A stretch of DNA of 30,614 bases, filler included, from a bacterium (GTDB lineage: Bacteria > JADJOY01): assembly GCA_046331705.1 (NCBI GenBank). It is 3 parts of 3 records of this genome, joined end to end, with 100 filler letters (N's around TTAATTAATTAA, not from the genome) between each part and the next. Parts side by side here need not be neighbours in the genome. Positions count along the whole stretch, not along the records: positions 24,126 to 30,614 come from JAXLQJ010000118.1; 2 more parts are not named here. One strand, given 5' to 3'. This document shows, in pieces, positions 504 through 30,389 of this stretch (the stretch's first letter is position 1; each line of letters begins with the position of its first letter). A model generated the notes under the pieces. That model did not search any database. It had not been told where the DNA came from and was given only the letters and a program-made list of their open reading frames with translations. Made by a program: the position numbers and the translations under genes.

Positions 504-668
504 CGCGGTTGCCCCGACCGACGATCGGCGGGTCACGTCCGCAGATTTCGTGCTCGCGTTCGCAGCACCTTTCGGGGCGGCATCAATCGTGCTTGCACAC
601 GCGCCCTCGAGGATGGAATGTCGTCGGGTCGATTGCGCCGCAAGCGTTGCGCGCCCTGCCCCACCTCC

Positions 669-2177
669 ATGCACGACACCCTCCACCGTCGAGACTTCCT
701 CCGTCGCGCCATAGCAGGGACCGCGGGACTGCTGCTGCCCGGTGCCTGCTCGCGGGCGCCGCAACCCGGTCCCGTACGTCCTAACGTCGTCCTGTTCGTC
801 ACCGACGACCAGAGCTGGAGCTCGATCGGCTATGCGAGCGGCGGCTCGGTGCAGACGCCGCACCTCGATCGGCTCTCGGCCCGCGGCGTGCGCTTCGAGC
901 GTGCCTACGCCAACTCGATGCCCTGCATCCCGTCGCGGGCGTCGATGCTCACCGGCCTGCACCACCACCGCTGGCCGCGGGGTCATCGCGTGTCGCGCAA
1001 GACCGGCGAGACGTACGAGACGTCGGTCGCAGAAGGGTCCTGGACCTGGGCGAGCGCCCTGCGCGCGGCGGGCTACGCGACCGCGCTCATCGGCAAGATG
1101 CACCTCGACCCGCCCAAGGCCCGTCTCGGCTTCGAGCAGATGCAACTGTGCGAGCTGCGCGCCATGGGCAAGGACGAGTACGCGCGCTGGCTCGAGTCGC
1201 ACGGCGTGCTCGAGAAGGTTCTGGCGACGACCGCGAAATCGCCCCTGAGCTTCGGGGTCGCCGACTGGCCGCTCAGCGCACGGCAGCACCGGATCTCGTG
1301 GGTGCGCGACCGCACCATCGAGTTCCTGGACGCCCAACGCCGCCAGGCCCAGCCGTTCCTGCTCGTGGTCTCCTTCCTCGCCCCGCACGCGCCGTACGAT
1401 CCCATCGAGCCCTTCGCTTCGATGTACGCCCCCGACGCGCAGGTCCTGCCCACGGATCGATGGCAGGACCTCCAGGCGATGCCGCCCACTCTCGCCGCGA
1501 TGCGCCGGCTCCTTCCCCGCAGCAATCTGCCGGCCGACCTCTTGCGACGCGCGCTGGCGCGCTATCTCGGGCTGGTCTCGCAGGTCGACGACTCGATCGG
1601 CACGATCGCCGGTCACATCGACCTCGAGCGCACGCTGGTCGTGTTCACCTCCGATCACGGAGACTATCTGGGCCGTCGCGATTGTCTGCTCAAGTCGCCG
1701 CTGGTCCCGTTCGACGCCGTTGCGCGGGTGCCAATGTTCGCGTGCGGCGCCGGGGTGCCCGAGGGGCTGTCATACCCTCATCCGGTCTCGCTGGTCGACA
1801 TCGCGCCGACGCTGCTCCGCGCCGCAGCGATCGACGTCCCCGCAGACCTCGACGGCAGGGCCCTGCAGGAGTGCTTCACGGCGACGGGCGCGGGCCCGGA
1901 CCGTACGACCTACTGCTTCGGCGCCGACGGCTTCGACATGATCACGCGCGGCAACGTCAAGTACTTTCAAGCACACCAGGGCGACGAGGAGATGCTGTTC
2001 GATCTCGCGGCGGATCCGGACGAATGGTCGAACGTCGTGGCCGATCACGACCGGCGGCACGACGTCGCGGCGCTCCGGCAAGCCATGGCTCAGGTTCGGC
2101 GGCGACCCCCGTCGACGTTGCCGGCGTTCTCGTTGTCTGCCCTCCCCCGTCGACGGAACCGGACCACCGCCGCATGA
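669..2177 (+). CDS. Formylglycine-dependent sulfatase (choline-sulfatase/arylsulfatase-like), predicted Tat lipoprotein
   Basis: Motifs: CIPSRASMLTG (CxPSR), N-terminal FVTDD, GKMH, APHAPY, FTSDHGDYLG, LFDLAADPDE. The N-terminus HRRDFLRR..LLLPGAC is a twin-arginine signal plus lipobox-like Cys. Start moved to ATG 669. Confidence 0.92.
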   Translation: MHDTLHRRDFLRRAIAGTAGLLLPGACSRAPQPGPVRPNVVLFVTDDQSWSSIGYASGGSVQTPHLDRLSARGVRFERAYANSMPCIPSRASMLTGLHHHRWPRGHRVSRKTGETYETSVAEGSWTWASALRAAGYATALIGKMHLDPPKARLGFEQMQLCELRAMGKDEYARWLESHGVLEKVLATTAKSPLSFGVADWPLSARQHRISWVRDRTIEFLDAQRRQAQPFLLVVSFLAPHAPYDPIEPFASMYAPDAQVLPTDRWQDLQAMPPTLAAMRRLLPRSNLPADLLRRALARYLGLVSQVDDSIGTIAGHIDLERTLVVFTSDHGDYLGRRDCLLKSPLVPFDAVARVPMFACGAGVPEGLSYPHPVSLVDIAPTLLRAAAIDVPADLDGRALQECFTATGAGPDRTTYCFGADGFDMITRGNVKYFQAHQGDEEMLFDLAADPDEWSNVVADHDRRHDVAALRQAMAQVRRRPPSTLPAFSLSALPRRRNRTTAA

Positions 2178-3948: not shown

Positions 3949-4048
3949 NNNNNNNNNNNNNNNNNNNNNNNNNNNNNNNNNNNNNNNNNNNNTTAATTAA
4001 TTAANNNNNNNNNNNNNNNNNNNNNNNNNNNNNNNNNNNNNNNNNNNN
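3949..4048. other. Artificial contig linker
   Basis: N44 + TTAATTAATTAA (stops in all frames) + N44. Confidence 0.98.
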
Positions 4049-24025: not shown

Positions 24026-24125
24026 NNNNNNNNNNNNNNNNNNNNNNNNNNNNNNNNNNNNNNNNNNNNTTAATTAATTAANNNNNNNNNNNNNNNNNNN
24101 NNNNNNNNNNNNNNNNNNNNNNNNN
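24026..24125. other. Artificial contig linker
   Basis: N44 + TTAATTAATTAA + N44. Confidence 0.98.
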
Positions 24126-24166
24126 GGCCGGAGGCCGAGGATCCGCCAGGAGACCGCTTCCCGCCA

Positions 24167-24832
24167 ATGCCGCTGACGATCGAGCAGTCCTTCTACGAGT
24201 TCCTCTGCGGCCCGCGCCAGTACCACGGAGACCTGAGTCGCTTCATTGCGGCCTATCGCGCGATTACCGCGGCGGAGACCGAGACACCTCTGCGCATCGT
24301 GCCGCACGAGGAGCGGATCATTGGGCGATTGGTGCTTCCGCTGCGACGCGCAAAGGCAGCCTTTGTCCTGGGCGACTACCTCGGGGTCGTGGCGCTTGGT
24401 GGAATCGTGGCCGAGATGGCCGCCATGCTGCTGTACGAGTTGGCCGACCTCGGATTGGACGATCAGCAGCAGGCGCTAACGTTTGGTCGGAGCTTCGTCA
24501 ACCTGGGCCAGGAGCGTAGAGTCGAAGTCCTCAAGGTGCGCGGCCTGCTCGATGAGCGCCAGTTGCAGTGGTTCGGATCGATCCGAGGCATTCGTCGCAA
24601 GGACCTGCACTTCCTAGACGAGCCGGCGCCGACCGAGACTGAGGCCCTTACGGTCTACCGCGCGGCATTGGGACTGGTCGCCACGACGATCGGCACGCCG
24701 CCTACCGAGTCATCCTTCGGTCTCAGCGACCAAGTCATGGCCCTCCTTCGGCGGAAGGGACTTGTGTGGAATCCTGAAGATGAGCCCGAGGGGCCGGGCA
24801 CGAAGGCCCGGGTCGGAATCCGTCTGTCGTAG
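24167..24832 (+). CDS. HEPN-like domain protein (possibly 5'-truncated)
   Basis: All-helical pattern AKAAFVLGDYLGVVALGGIVAE plus C-terminal Rx4H (IRRKDLH). The frame is open back to the contig edge (24128), so the true start may be missing. Confidence 0.6.
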   Translation: MPLTIEQSFYEFLCGPRQYHGDLSRFIAAYRAITAAETETPLRIVPHEERIIGRLVLPLRRAKAAFVLGDYLGVVALGGIVAEMAAMLLYELADLGLDDQQQALTFGRSFVNLGQERRVEVLKVRGLLDERQLQWFGSIRGIRRKDLHFLDEPAPTETEALTVYRAALGLVATTIGTPPTESSFGLSDQVMALLRRKGLVWNPEDEPEGPGTKARVGIRLS

Positions 24833-24883
24833 GGTTTCCTGGGCACGTTGCGCGCGCCGAGGACCGGCGAAGGAGTGTCTGAG

Positions 24884-25393
24884 ATGCGCTTTCAAGAGAT
24901 CCTGGCGCGGCTGACCGGCCTCAGCTCACCGGTGTTCGGCGTGTCCTGGAATCCGAAGGAACCGGAGATCGCCGTCGCGAAGCGCGTCATCGTCTTCCTG
25001 GAAGATAGACGCGTTCTGTACGTGCCATCGGAGATGGAATCGCCCAGTCACTGCGTCAAGTCCATCCTCGAGATTCGCAGGTACCTCACGCAGGAACTGC
25101 AAACGCTCGGCGAGGGATCGGAACTCGCCGCCTCGCTCCGTGCGATGCGCGCCGCCTGTCGGAAATTCCTAACGGCGATGCATTCTCGCCAAGATCTCGT
25201 GCTCTACGGCGCCCATCACGGGCACTGGGCAAGCTGGGAGTTCAACGGGGGGCTCGGCGAACTTCGGGGCGTCTTCGGCGTCCACATCGCCCGGCTCGCG
25301 GCCGCCCATGGGCTCGGGGTGGAGGGCGACCTTGCGTCGATACTGCCGGGCTCGATCGACGACCGCAGCGGAGTGGGAGACCTGGAAGGCTGA
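24884..25393 (+). CDS. DUF6650-like protein
   Basis: AAGGAG RBS. MRFQEILARLTGLSSPVFGVSWNP...FLEDRRVLY...HCVKSILEIRRYLT...MRAACRKFL...LGELRGVFG matches my recollection of DUF6650; not searched. Confidence 0.7.
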   Translation: MRFQEILARLTGLSSPVFGVSWNPKEPEIAVAKRVIVFLEDRRVLYVPSEMESPSHCVKSILEIRRYLTQELQTLGEGSELAASLRAMRAACRKFLTAMHSRQDLVLYGAHHGHWASWEFNGGLGELRGVFGVHIARLAAAHGLGVEGDLASILPGSIDDRSGVGDLEG

Positions 25394-25426
25394 ACGCCTT
25401 CAACCGTAAACGCCCATGAGGCTGCC

Positions 25427-26269
25427 ATGCCCACTCGCGTCACCTTCGACAACAACTTCCTCGACAAGTTCAACCAGGCGCATGCGGAGGAACGCCGGAG
25501 GATTCTGGACTGCGTCGCCTCGGGAGGCGTTGAGTTCTACGCGAACTTCGAGATGCTTCGTGAACTGATGGGCTTGGCAGCCAGCCCGGCGCGCAAGCGC
25601 CTGATTATCCCCTACTCCGCCGATGTCCTCGCCCTGACCGGCGGGAAGATTCTGAACGAAGTGCTGCCGATGCTCGAAACTGAGCTGCGCGGCACGTTCG
25701 AGCTCCAGCTGCCCAAGAGTCGGCTCGGGGAGATCGTTGCGTTCCTCGAGCAGGCAGCGAGTGGGCATGTTCCCGACGCGGCCCTAGTCATCGGGACGGG
25801 GGCCATCGATGAGAAATCGCAGGCCAAGGCTGGTTTCGACGCGATGTTCCGCGCATTTGAGACGCATTTCGGCGGATTGAACGACTCGGAGCGTGCCAAG
25901 ATCACCCTAGAGCAGTTGCAGGCGGGCTGGTGGTCCAAGAAGGGCCGGGACACGGTGCTTCGCTTCTGCGCCGATTGGGGTGTCCCGAACCCGGAACAAA
26001 CAGCCGACCAGGTCATGGCCAATCCCGAACGCTTTCCCCACGTCCAGGCGTAGGCTCGCATCTTCGCTCTCAACCTTCATCGGTACCTCGTCCTACGTCG
26101 AAGGCGGCACGAGGGCGATCTTTTCGACCTCTGGCAGATGCTCTACCTGCAGGACATAGACGTCTACATCACCGACGAGAAGAAGCTGCCCGAGTGGTAC
26201 GGAGGCGTTTTCGGGAATACCCGCCGAGTGCTCACGGCAGCCGAGTTTCTTGCTGAGCGGTGGTGCTAG
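25427..26269 (+). pseudogene. PIN-like domain gene interrupted by one in-frame TAG (26051-26053)
   Basis: N-terminal VTFDNNFL (PIN strand-1 Asp). After the TAG the same frame continues 71 sense codons with GDLFDLWQMLYLQDIDVYITDEKKL (PIN C-terminal acidic motifs) to TAG 26267-26269. Confidence 0.7.
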
Positions 26270-26320
26270 GCAGGGTCTACGCCATTCTCCGTCGCCAACG
26301 GCCATTGGCAAGAGTGCGAG

Positions 26321-27721
26321 ATGAAACCAGAAACGCCACAGGACATCCTTCAGAAGCTCGGGCTTCCGATGCCCCCGCCCCCAATCGTGCCGCTTCACGG
26401 CGTGCCCAGCGCGAACGAGCCGATTCAGCTGTACGAGGGCCCCGTGGCAGTTGGCATCGGCGATAAGGAAGTCCTCATTGCCGGCACCGTCGCGTGGGAA
26501 TGGCACCCGCATCCCCGGGTGATGGTTCGTGGCACGACCGCGGCATCGCTTAGGGTGGATGTGCGGGACGCGACAATCTCCATCCCATCGCTCGCCATGC
26601 GCGGAACGTGTCTGCTGTCCGTCGGGATGTCCTTCGAGCATGACTCCGGCCCGAGCTACTCCGTACGCGCCCTCATGCATGATCCGTTCTGCGGCGGCGA
26701 CCTTGGGAAGGCGGTTGCCTTACGAGCCTACCTCCCCAACTTCCCTGAGATGATTGGCAGCCCCGTGGCCCGCGTGGTCGGCGAATCGTTGGAGGTGCAG
26801 CGGGTTCGCATCACTCTCAACGGCGACCCGTGGCAGGTGGTGCTCGACCAGGTGCCGCAGGCGACAACCAACCGAAATGCCCTCCGATCCACTGGCGGAT
26901 TCGCCGTGACGCATGTATGCGAGATCCGTCGCGTGGATGGCCAGCACTTCGAGCAGGCTGACGTCGAGCAGCTTGAGGCAGACCTGCACCTGTACTTCTC
27001 GTTCCTGCGTGGGCACTACTGCAGTCCGGTGCTGCTCGAAGGAGTCGACTCCACGGGTGCGTCGTGCTGGCGATCATGGAGCTACCGTCCCATGGAGTCG
27101 GCCAAGACGGTCTGGGAATGGCTCCCGGTCTTTGAGCCGGCAGCGGCCAGGCAGCTGTTTCCTGGGTTCATGGCGCGCCGGGCCGACTCGCAATGGCGGC
27201 AATCGATCGAAGCGGCAGTGCGCTGGTACCTCTCCGGCAACACATTTGCCGGCGGCAGAGCCGGCGCGATCGTACTCGCCATCGCAGGCCTCGAGTTGTT
27301 GGCCTGGGAGTACCTTGCCGACCCTCGCCTGAAGAAGCAGCGGGGCCAGAGTCGACAAGGAACTTCAGAGAAGGTCCGCGCCCTACTGCAGTGGGCAGGA
27401 ATCCCTGCAGCCATTCCCGCAGGTCTGACTGCCCTCGCCGCTGCTTGTCCAGGGCATGACGCCGCTCGAGCCCTCATCGACGTTCGCAACGGCATCGCCC
27501 ACCCGGAGCCCCGATATGCGCACCTGCGGTCGGACGAAGTCCTCTGGGACAGTTGGCGCTTGGCACTGGAGCTGCTCGAGCTCGCAATCCTCCGGCTCAG
27601 CGACTACTCCGGCAAGTTCCACAGCCGGGTAGAGGGCAATCGCTTCGCGGCGGACGTCACCAGCGTTCCGTGGATGGTAGGCTCGGAGACGCAGCCTTCT
27701 CCCGACGGGGCCGAGAGCTGA
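26321..27721 (+). CDS. ApeA-like / YopA-like protein with C-terminal HEPN domain
   Basis: Beta-rich N-terminal half, then AVRWYLSGN...LAIAGLELLAW and the HEPN motif VRNGIAHP (R-N-x3-H). 466 aa, typical ApeA-type layout. Confidence 0.72.
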   Translation: MKPETPQDILQKLGLPMPPPPIVPLHGVPSANEPIQLYEGPVAVGIGDKEVLIAGTVAWEWHPHPRVMVRGTTAASLRVDVRDATISIPSLAMRGTCLLSVGMSFEHDSGPSYSVRALMHDPFCGGDLGKAVALRAYLPNFPEMIGSPVARVVGESLEVQRVRITLNGDPWQVVLDQVPQATTNRNALRSTGGFAVTHVCEIRRVDGQHFEQADVEQLEADLHLYFSFLRGHYCSPVLLEGVDSTGASCWRSWSYRPMESAKTVWEWLPVFEPAAARQLFPGFMARRADSQWRQSIEAAVRWYLSGNTFAGGRAGAIVLAIAGLELLAWEYLADPRLKKQRGQSRQGTSEKVRALLQWAGIPAAIPAGLTALAAACPGHDAARALIDVRNGIAHPEPRYAHLRSDEVLWDSWRLALELLELAILRLSDYSGKFHSRVEGNRFAADVTSVPWMVGSETQPSPDGAES

Positions 27722-27874
27722 TTGTCGATGAGTTCGTCGAAATCTAGCGAACGCCTGAGGGTCGCTCCCACGCGAAAGCCCGAGCGCTGAGCAAGAGGTG
27801 CGCACCCGGTCAGCGCCACGCGCGGAGGCCCGACCCCGTGGGACGTTGCCCGCGTCGCGCCCGTAGCCGCCCGC

Positions 27875-27911
27875 CTGAGCGCCTCCCGCGCCCCCGCCCC
27901 GCTGAGCGCCT
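27875..27911 (+). repeat. Direct repeat CTGAGCGCCT x2
   Basis: Exact copies at 27875-27884 and 27902-27911, each preceded by a GCCC(C)G-like run. Confidence 0.6.
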
Positions 27912-27992
27912 GCGGCGGCCGACGCCCCGCCCCGGGCGGTTCGAGTCTTGCTGGGTAGTAGGCCGAGCGGGCCCAGGCGCGGAATCCGTGCC

Positions 27993-28088
27993 CTACGCGG
28001 CCTTCTCCGCCAGCGCCAGCCGCAGCTCGTTCATTTCGCGGAGCCAGCCCAGCAGTTGGTTCAACTCCGCCATCCATGGGGACGCCAA
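27993..28088 (-). other. Orphan coding tail LASPWMAELNQLLGWLREMNELRLALAEKAA* starting in the att core
   Basis: 31 sense codons, almost all G/C-ending, forming an amphipathic helix. No RBS seen. The upstream frame beyond 28088 reads as non-coding. Confidence 0.6.
28074..28087 (+). repeat. Displaced tRNA-Glu-like 3' fragment, candidate attR core
   Basis: CCATGGGGACGCCA; GGGGACGCCA is the 3' end of bacterial tRNA-Glu such as E. coli's. No 5' half of a tRNA lies upstream. It sits at the island/host boundary and is followed by a terminator-like hairpin. Confidence 0.62.
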
Positions 28089-28325: not shown

Positions 28326-30389
28326 ATGAAGCGCAGGGACTTTCTCCGCACCGCATCGCTGTTCGGGGCCGCTCTCGCATTCGGGGCCGGCGACGTCTGG
28401 GCATCCACGCGCGAATGGCGTGAGCGCCGTGAGTTCTTCCCCGAAGGCGTCGCGTCGGGCGACCCGCAGGCGGAAAGCGTGATCCTGTGGACGCGCCGGC
28501 CGCCGGTGAACGGCAGCACGTCCCGACGCCTCACGCTCGAGATCGCCGAGGACGAGAAGTTCACGCGCGTCGTCGCGACCACACGCACCCGCCTGTCCGC
28601 CGCCTCCGACTGGACGTGCCGCGTGCTCGCGGCGGGACTGAAGCCGGCACGCGTGTACTGGTACCGGTTCACCGACGAAGAGGGGAACGGCAGCCGCATC
28701 GGCCGCACGGTCACCGCGCCCGCGAACGACGATCCTCGCCCGGCGCGCTTCGCTTTCGTCAGCTGCCAGGACGCCAACACGGGCGCACAGAACGCCTATC
28801 GCCGGATGATCTACGAAGACGAGCGCGCGCCCGAGAACGAACGGCTCGGCTTCGTGCTGCACCTGGGTGACTTCATCTACGAGATGGTCTGGTACCCGGA
28901 AGATCGCAAGCAGGGCTACTACGACCGCACGATCTACGACGTGGTGCGCTACCCCGGGGGCGAGAAGATCAGCGACTTCCATGTCCCGATCACGGTGGAC
29001 GACTACCGCGCCGTGTATCGCGGCTACCTGCACGACCCGGAAATCCAGGACGCTCGTGCGCGCTGGCCCTTCGTCTGCATCTGGGACAACCACGAGTACT
29101 CGTGGCAGGGCTATCAGGGCATGCAGGTGTTCGGTGGCAAGACGCGGCCCGCGCAGACGCGCAAGGTCGCCGCGAACCAGGCGTGGTGGGAGTTCCAGCC
29201 GGCGCGCGTGGAAAAGCCCAGCGGGCCTTCGCTCGAGACTTTCGATCCGCCGCACGTCGAGGACGCGCCGGTCACGACGTACGACGAGCACGGACTCGGG
29301 CAGGAGCCCAACAACCTCACGGCGATCGCGAGCTTGAAGGCGTACCGGTCCACTCGCTACGGCGCGAACTTCGACCTGTTCATCACCGATCTGCACAGCT
29401 TCCGCTCGCCGGACGCGACCGACGTGCCCGAGGGCGACCAGTTCTACGACAAGGCGTTCCCGTACTTCGTGCCGGAAGAAGTCATCGAGATCCTCGACGC
29501 CGGTCGTACGTACGATGGCGGCCATCCGCCGGCGACGATTCGATTCGCGGGCAAGGACATCCACAACTCTCGCGCGGACGGACTCCCTCCCTCGATGCTC
29601 GGCGTGGAGCAGAAGGCGTGGTTCCTTTCGCAGCTGCGATCCTCGCGCACGCCGTGGAAGGTGTGGGGCAACTCGCTCCCGACGCTCACCGAGCGCACGG
29701 ACCCGCAGAACCTTCCGCCGGGATCACCCGCGTGGGGCGGCTCGGGATACGCGAGCCTGGGCGGCGGCGACTGGAGCAACCTCGTCACCGAGCGCAACGA
29801 GATCTTCGACGCGGTGCGCGACGCCGGCATCACCGGGTTCACGATCGTCGCGGGTGACCGCCATGCGTTCTGGTCCGGGCTGCCGTCGCGTTCGCTGCCG
29901 CCCAAGCCGTTCGAGCCGGTAGGCCTGGAGTTCATCACGGGCTCCATTTCGGCGCCGGGGTTCCTCGAATCCGCCGAGCACCGCTTGCGCAAGGACGTGC
30001 CGCTGCGCGGCATGTACCTGGCCGACACTCCCGGTGCGGCGAAACCCGAGCCGACGGTCAACATGATGATCCGGCACGGTGTGCGCTCGGCTCTCGAATA
30101 CGCGAGCTCGCGCGACATCGCCAAGGCGCGCGCGCTTTCCAATCCCGACTCGTCACCTCACCTGACGTTCGTGGACACGGGCGGCCACGGCTACGCCACC
30201 GTGCGCGTCACGCCGGACACGCTCGAAACCGAGTTCGTGTGCATCGAGCGCCCGATCGTGCGCAACACCGCTCCGGACGGCGGCCCGCTGCGCTACCGCG
30301 TGCTTCACCGCGCGAACCTCTGGAAGGCGGGCGAGCGGCCGAGCATGGAGGTGAAGGTGATCGAAGGAGCAGCGGACTTGTCCATCTAG
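28326..30389 (+). CDS. phoD: Alkaline phosphatase D family protein, Tat-exported
   Basis: MKRRDFLR Tat signal. Motifs FPEGVASGDP, FVSCQ, LHLGDFIYE, WDNHE, MLGVEQKAW, GDRH. GAGG RBS before ATG 28326. Confidence 0.93.
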   Translation: MKRRDFLRTASLFGAALAFGAGDVWASTREWRERREFFPEGVASGDPQAESVILWTRRPPVNGSTSRRLTLEIAEDEKFTRVVATTRTRLSAASDWTCRVLAAGLKPARVYWYRFTDEEGNGSRIGRTVTAPANDDPRPARFAFVSCQDANTGAQNAYRRMIYEDERAPENERLGFVLHLGDFIYEMVWYPEDRKQGYYDRTIYDVVRYPGGEKISDFHVPITVDDYRAVYRGYLHDPEIQDARARWPFVCIWDNHEYSWQGYQGMQVFGGKTRPAQTRKVAANQAWWEFQPARVEKPSGPSLETFDPPHVEDAPVTTYDEHGLGQEPNNLTAIASLKAYRSTRYGANFDLFITDLHSFRSPDATDVPEGDQFYDKAFPYFVPEEVIEILDAGRTYDGGHPPATIRFAGKDIHNSRADGLPPSMLGVEQKAWFLSQLRSSRTPWKVWGNSLPTLTERTDPQNLPPGSPAWGGSGYASLGGGDWSNLVTERNEIFDAVRDAGITGFTIVAGDRHAFWSGLPSRSLPPKPFEPVGLEFITGSISAPGFLESAEHRLRKDVPLRGMYLADTPGAAKPEPTVNMMIRHGVRSALEYASSRDIAKARALSNPDSSPHLTFVDTGGHGYATVRVTPDTLETEFVCIERPIVRNTAPDGGPLRYRVLHRANLWKAGERPSMEVKVIEGAADLSI

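Follow-up and report, generated by a model that had tools for sequence, protein, structure and literature searches.

A probable orphaned end of a large serine recombinase gene, with a conserved Ala-Ala terminus, beside a displaced tRNA-Glu(TTC) 3' end

Background

The architecture in which a recombinase gene spans its own attP is known from DsiB of Dehalococcoides, from myxophage Mx8 and from the SSV-type archaeal integrases. In the ssrA genomic islands of Dehalococcoides, the gene of DsiB is arranged in this way with the tmRNA gene as target, and the available part of the source suggests that DsiB may reach its full function only when the element is circular, or when its gene stands behind a neighbouring island with the 3' gene fragment (McMurdie et al. 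2011, PMC3146451). In Mx8 (IntP/IntX), attP lies in the integrase coding sequence, integration makes a new int 3' end and, in the accessible portion of the article, the altered integrase is stated to stay active with a changed specificity (PMC6070905). The SSV-type ("suicidal") integrases have the site within the integrase ORF, and integration is reported to split the gene in two (PMC7253208). Finally, in mycobacteriophage integration-dependent immunity (e.g. BPs), attP at a tRNA 3' end lies inside a gene, and integration, according to the extract available, strips the repressor of an ssrA-like tag, the integrase being tagged as well (PMC9262239).

We describe here a short minus-strand reading frame in a window of 30,614 nucleotides (the whole stretch of DNA that was analysed), which we interpret as the 3' end, now orphaned, of the gene for a large serine recombinase (LSR) of this architecture. 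Relative to the described systems, what appears to be new is the conserved Ala-Ala end of the family. SSV-type integrases are archaeal tyrosine recombinases whose gene is split deep within its length and thereby inactivated, whereas the window family would swap only ~22-27 C-terminal residues. The likeness to DsiB, drawn from the described architecture, lies in a gene that runs antisense into the target RNA gene, and the tandem idea matches a pair of recombinase genes found here (L187 and L188); DsiB differs in that its target is a tmRNA gene rather than tRNA-Glu, in that it is accompanied by a second small recombinase, DsiA, and in that its C-terminal part is divergent, the authors giving no conserved tail or Ala-Ala end in the parts of the text available (PMC3146451). 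The Mx8 enzyme differs in being a tyrosine recombinase, and its description, as far as available, mentions no degron (PMC6070905). In the BPs type, the gene that is cut encodes the repressor, the integrase is a tyrosine enzyme and, in the accessible text, the integrase tag is not removed by integration (PMC9262239), whereas in the window family the tail with the candidate tag belongs to the serine recombinase itself; the gene spanning attP being that of a serine recombinase, the element would work alike without being a member of this type. Outside subscription journals and supplements, a literature search turned up no paper in which serine integrases that target tRNA genes are given a conserved tail ending in Ala-Ala.

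Results

Composition of the window

The window joins three separate contigs of a metagenome-assembled genome (G000), namely C115 (1-3948), C117 (4049-24025) and C118 (24126-30614), the last of which is a whole contig and carries the tail studied here. Features cannot be linked across the joins, which consist of N spacers of 100 bases each (3949-4048 and 24026-24125) containing TTAATTAATTAA, and the island is therefore considered to run off the contig end. What is left of it on C118 is a partial cargo region (24126-27992, plus strand) that is cut by the contig start and has a lower G+C content, of 0.58-0.65. It contains four plus-strand ORFs (24167-24832, 24848-25393, 25427-26053 and 26321-27721), the second of them with a DUF6650 label, and the four proteins have no homologues in the other stored loci or elements. 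The host-side flank is formed by a gene for a Tat-signal PhoD-like phosphatase (28326-30389, plus strand; Pfam PhoD and PhoD_N), which serves as a synteny anchor to relatives with a tRNA-Glu upstream. A search of genome contigs found PhoD orthologues that are 74-84% identical in L017-L021 and L057. None was found in the same-genus and same-family genomes G001-G005, where a weak match over 89 residues (E 1.7e-4) turned up in G005, of a sister genus, and a phylum-level search of 6 genomes gave low-complexity matches.

A second assembly version of C118 exists in another genome, G044 (4.5 Mb), as the opening 6.49 kb of a contig of 71.8 kb (L016). It shows 8 indels and 0 substitutions relative to the window version, and all the indels, which we read as assembly or polishing differences, fall within the G+C-rich spacer 27826-28076. 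The sequence of this spacer is uncertain, and the indels at 28067 and 28076 decide the frame between Ala-Ser-Pro and the tail, which is broken in L016. The window version keeps the 30-nt spacing seen at the two sites of L019 and in L057, which were picked by eye before any pattern search, and for this reason we provisionally take it, as an unproven choice, to be the correct one. C118 may also have been binned with the wrong organism, so that absences in G000 carry little weight.

The tRNA-Glu core and its attachment-site arm

The crossover core at 28077-28087 (plus strand) is the displaced 3' end of a tRNA-Glu(TTC), composed of the acceptor 3' strand, the discriminator G and CCA. Its sequence, TGGGGACGCCA, is identical over 11/11 nt to the end of the tRNA-Glu(TTC) in three syntenic relatives (L017, L018 and L020), where the intact tRNA gene lies 1.4-3.7 kb upstream of a PhoD gene 77-82% identical to that of the window and ends ...GGGTTCGAATCCCGTTGGGGACGCCA (L017 and L018) or ...GGGTTCAAATCCCGT... 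(L020). The tRNA-like core noticed by the first-pass annotation is thus real, owing to this 11-nt identity. ARAGORN and Rfam reported no tRNA or cloverleaf in the window, and nothing but the final 11 nt, together with a pentamer similar to the T-loop, resembles tRNA-Glu.

This pentamer, GGTTC, belongs to an arm of attP type at 28058-28076 (plus strand) that appears to derive from the element. Alignment against the three intact tRNAs places the motif 5 nt further from the core than in a true tRNA, in the window as well as in L016, L019 (two sites) and L057, all of which have just such a fragment of the tRNA. For the Listeria LI/A118 integrase, the available part of the source reports that the serine-integrase zinc-ribbon DNA motif of attB is 5 bp closer to the centre than that of attP (Rutherford et al. 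2013, PMC3783163), and our observation, a distal motif 5 nt further out than in the tRNA (attB), agrees with this rule and shares its 5-bp shift, GGTTC being in our case only a putative zinc-ribbon site. Because of the offset and of this attP/attB rule, the window fragment looks like a hybrid junction, with a left arm from the element attP and a right arm from the host tRNA.

The same hot spot in L017 shows another arrangement, in which a 1.2-kb insert lies between an intact tRNA-Glu (1269-1344) and a plain repeat, 25 nt long, of the 3' end of this tRNA (~2520-2552). Since the repeat lacks the 5-nt shift, we read this insert as probably the remnant of a different, tyrosine-type element.

The minus-strand frame

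The frame under study runs on the minus strand over 31 codons (28088..27996), followed by the stop codon TAG (27995..27993); it begins TTG GCG TCC CCA TGG ATG, ends GCC GCG TAG and reads LASPWMAELNQLLGWLREMNELRLALAEKAA-stop, i.e. LASPW...EKAA. Sequence and ORF listing both agree with the earlier account of it as a GC3-rich minus-strand frame of 31 codons ending in EKAA. The tail proper of the family begins past Ala-Ser-Pro, and 24/26 of the last codons have G or C at the third position. The earlier remark that no convincing ribosome-binding site is present also stands, with a GGAAG that precedes ATG 28073 by 18 nt and TTG 28088 by 1 nt. A longer version, of 71 aa and starting at GTG 28208, is Arg-rich and looks non-coding in its N-terminal part, and its matches in G001-G005 were weak only (best E 0.03) and were read as noise. 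Taken alone, the tail ORF is at chance level, with 51 ORFs of at least 25 aa in 4.6 kb of 68% G+C DNA, and the 14-mer CCATGGGGACGCCA was found at least once, with up to 2 mismatches, in 32/100 shuffles.

Homology of the tail to large serine recombinases

A tblastn search of the tail against the PhoD loci identified similar in-frame peptides beside the tRNA 3' fragments of L057 and L019, as the first-pass annotation had expected of tail homologues. Despite roughly 50% divergence, the three sequences align without indels over ~75 nt and show synonymous differences (Arg CGC/CGG/CGA, Leu CTG/CTC/CTA), a pattern which points to coding sequence. A degenerate pattern derived from four fragments was then scanned over genome contigs and gave 69 loci, of which ~21, from Acidobacteriota and Eisenbacteria, carry the tail (L/V/M)ASPICASWNQLxxWLRAVDGLRxAA-stop or an Eisenbacteria variant of it (L123 and L124 being one and the same site). 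In the resulting alignment, the columns A2, S3, P4, A7 and N10 were fixed by the search pattern and their invariance is therefore circular, whereas W15, R23 and the hydrophobic positions were free.

At one of these sites, L128, the frame is open upstream of the tail and gives a 575-aa ORF with Resolvase, Recombinase and Zn_ribbon_recom domains, whose protein ends ...MASPICASWNQLDRWLRQVERLRRAA, a tail of the same family in the same frame. The window tail itself matches a 425-aa recombinase representative (P0129) with 13/25 identical residues at positions 400-424 (E 4e-5), can be aligned with 18 other tails and shares 14-17 identities with the Eisenbacteria-type metagenome tails. The attribution of the tail to an integrase is consequently borne out by the alignment, in the Ala-Ser-Pro frame, with the C-terminus of intact LSRs. 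A run of 107 open codons upstream of the tail in L127 was rejected as a gene, being non-coding-like.

Integrated relatives and complete elements

The L128 enzyme was searched against the whole library and gave 34,939 matches at E <= 0.001; among the best 150 of them, 109 align to query residue 500 or beyond. Of these 109 LSR representatives, 42 end in an antisense-tRNA peptide (e.g. ..ASPTGFEPVFWP, ..TPAGFEPAISTLKGSRPGPG or WRPQRDSNP), 25 end in Ala-Ala, and 42, some of them truncated, have neither end. Tails of the ASPxGFEP type, to which the first-pass annotation had pointed, are indeed present in many related recombinases, as ASPTGFEPVFWP illustrates.

An alignment of 40 LSR enzymes was used to retrieve 80 genomic loci. 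In 42 of them the recombinase 3' end overlaps a tRNA on the opposite strand, giving ...ASPTGFEP ends, and the tRNAs concerned are Glu-TTC (28), Ala-CGC (8), Glu-CTC (2), Arg (2), Gln (1) and Lys (1). The eight sites in tRNA-Ala(CGC), with ...GGGQGS-like ends, belong to a Nitrospira group (L241-L243, L248, L256, L257, L263 and L266), and the LSR family has switched tRNA targets. At nine loci the stored flank contains, upstream, a further copy of the 11-nt core; that of L247, inside the recombinase gene, was set aside as chance. The other eight loci define complete elements, which measure 3.9-10.7 kb and have direct repeats of 12-27 nt with one tRNA and one fragment each, the repeat opening in 6/8 with the 10-nt tRNA-end core (TGGCGTCCCC on the recombinase strand). 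Each of the eight also has an orphan tail of 20-31 aa, junction codons included, at its far junction, in the frame of the recombinase whose gene crosses the tRNA-proximal one.

On the strength of these integrated relatives and complete elements, the proposed architecture, in which a gene running into the tRNA at the far end of the island would gain the tail once attP is restored, holds for the relatives (42/80 loci and the eight elements); the partner ORF itself was found neither in G000 nor in G044.

Search for the partner gene

In G000, which is 95.7% complete, we found no LSR of the tail's family, no Resolvase domain and no tRNA-Glu matching the core. The 14-mer core occurs once in this genome; blastn-short with words of 7-9 gave no second core copy, blastn-short gave no repeat of the 604-nt intergenic region, and tblastn of the tail gave no paralogue. 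None of the tRNA-Glu genes of G000 (on C13, C14 and C102) has the core at its end; that of C102 comes nearest, with ...TGGGGACACCA. In G044, likewise, neither the tail's LSR family nor the matching tRNA-Glu was found. The L128 enzyme used as query had no match in the orphan-tail genomes G041-G043, and the sole Recombinase-domain gene of G042 (L186), which has neither tail nor tRNA, was discarded as unrelated. C118 starts 3.95 kb left of the core, a distance shorter than most complete elements, and this may be why the recombinase body and the intact tRNA are missing from the assembly; the recombinase end of the window's element may lie unassembled beyond the contig start.

G000 contains a second case on another contig (C6, L185), where a 351-aa ORF with a Recombinase domain and no Resolvase domain (661-1716, minus strand) runs antisense through a predicted tRNA-Arg(TCG) (726-804, plus strand) and ends in a tRNA-antisense peptide.

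The Ala-Ala ending

The terminal Ala-Ala, which the first-pass annotation had proposed to look for in tail homologues, is conserved well above background and in this frame only. The ending was found in 7/8 tails of complete elements, in 13/19 genome tails, in 20/32 complete family-like metagenome tails and in 25/109 LSR representatives, for a background of 126/3465 (3.6%) among the likely coding ORFs of G000; the other two frames at the same sites gave 0/8 and 0/19 each, and the integrated-form ORFs 0/42. Binomial p-values for the enrichment among the LSR representatives overstate its significance, since these proteins are related to one another. The Ala codons at the ends vary (GCG 23, GCC 11, GCA 5, GCT 1), all three stop codons are in use and the DNA downstream of the tails differs between loci, which speaks for the protein, and not a DNA motif, as the object of selection. 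Five of the 7 Eisenbacteria-type genome orphans lack the ending, which fits the decay of unused scars and also weakens the Ala-Ala rule.

A terminal Ala-Ala is the part of ssrA-like degrons that is read by ClpXP. The Ala-Ala end of the family may be an ssrA-like degron that integration would remove; G000 has clpX and a tmRNA tag ending ...AIAA, with the proviso that C118 may belong to another bin.

Discussion

Proposed explanation

We propose, with a probability of about 0.85, that an element has inserted into the 3' end of tRNA-Glu(TTC), that its LSR gene spans attP and that the window tail is the orphaned end of this gene. Under this explanation, a small integrative element would insert into the tRNA-Glu(TTC) 3' end by means of a large serine recombinase whose own gene contains attP within its final ~30 codons. 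The gene would be split on integration, the body staying at the tRNA-proximal junction, where its frame would read antisense into the regenerated tRNA and end ...ASPTGFEP.., and the last ~26 codons being moved to the distal junction, where they would remain as an untranslated orphan by the 11-nt tRNA end and the PhoD gene. A recombinase would regain the tail through excision, or through the arrival of a second element in tandem. The free-form enzyme would then carry a candidate ssrA-like Ala-Ala degron and a putative helix, both lost on integration, and its stability or activity may differ between the integrated and excised states. Sequence comparison shows that the tail is homologous and in frame, how the junction is built and that the terminal Ala-Ala is conserved; a role in degradation or directionality is a plausible hypothesis.

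Alternative explanations

The best-surviving alternative, to which we give somewhat less than an even chance, is a rival on activity and not on identity, and is compatible with the main explanation: the tail would be the inert scar of a past insertion, left by an element that has lost its recombinase, without any present role. It may indeed be a dead relic, as the partner gene is unseen in both G000 and G044. Most homologous tails are orphaned too, a recombinase within 2 kb being present at only L128 of the ~21 family sites and a full recombinase beside 0/35 metagenome tails; several (L137 and L152) lie 0.9-1.4 kb from an intact tRNA-Glu, too close for a recombinase to fit between, and scar arrays exist (L019, L120/L121 and L308-L310). 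However, the window tail keeps an intact frame, the conserved family residues and the Ala-Ala end, and a contig that ends 3.95 kb from the core is short for elements that span 3.9-10.7 kb and have the recombinase at the far end. The gene may thus lie just off the contig, and contigs of mobile elements are often missing from bins.

We consider it very improbable that the frame arose by chance over the decayed pseudogene of a tRNA-Glu, or over an ordinary tyrosine-integrase attR, and has no coding meaning. ORFs of such size are common in DNA of 68% G+C, tRNA islands usually come from tyrosine integrases, as stated in the accessible part of the Islander paper (PMC4383910), and the plain 25-nt tRNA repeat of L017 lacks the 5-nt shift; but past the 11-nt core the window has no tRNA match (40/57 positions differ over codons 6-24), the tail matches LSR C-termini, the synonymous-site pattern points to coding, Ala-Ala ends occur in the tail frame only and an offset of 5 nt typifies the attP arms of serine integrases in the available text of PMC3783163. 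Least probable of all, and disfavoured although the first-pass annotation had itself raised it, is a stand-alone 26-aa small gene from ATG 28073, an intact, high-GC3 ORF with an ATG that could form an amphipathic helix but that has no ribosome-binding site, no paralogue in G000 and no homologue with Met at the aligned position (mostly Ile, Thr, Gly, Cys or Tyr), whose homologues are the ends of 560-575-aa proteins, and which in the L016 version stops after 3 codons.

Possible regulation and significance

Returning to the orphaned recombinase end, we suggest more tentatively, and as the less likely outcome, that a widespread clade of tRNA-targeting LSRs regulates itself: the free form would bear a helix with an Ala-Ala degron, the integrated form an antisense-tRNA peptide that makes it longer-lived or differently active, and the exchange would act as a stability or directionality switch. 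With a C-terminus rewritten by the enzyme's own recombination, and with Ala-Ala only in the free form, how long the enzyme lasts or how active it is could simply follow the integration state. Genome engineering prizes serine integrases because they act strictly one way as long as no separate directionality factor is there; a self-switching LSR, if true, would possibly be less dependent on such a factor.

According to the available text of the 2014 Islander paper, no targeting of tRNA genes by serine integrases was known (PMC4383910), and a Paracoccus phage with a serine recombinase has been predicted, in the passage at hand, to integrate at tRNA-Met (PMC6536676). The loci gathered here show tRNA genes to be common targets of serine integrases in soil phyla (Acidobacteriota, Nitrospirota, Eisenbacteria and Methylomirabilota), and the window contains a single orphan member of the class. 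For annotation, protein ends in "...GFEP" and short "tRNA-like" ORFs by tRNA fragments are junction artefacts of such elements, and orphan tails flag past insertions.

Two recombinase genes that are 88% identical lie 12.8 kb apart on one contig (L187, 10001-11728; L188, 10001-11722), with intact tails ending RRAA and RRVA, and we interpret them as parts of a tandem array, where the enzyme of one element would read into the orphan tail of the next. Several orphan tails accompanied by fragments of tRNA-Glu also stand in series, at two sites of L019 (169 and 1171), at L120 and L121, which are 5.2 kb apart on one contig, and at three sites on one 6.7-kb contig (L308-L310); these look like the stacked scars of repeated insertions.
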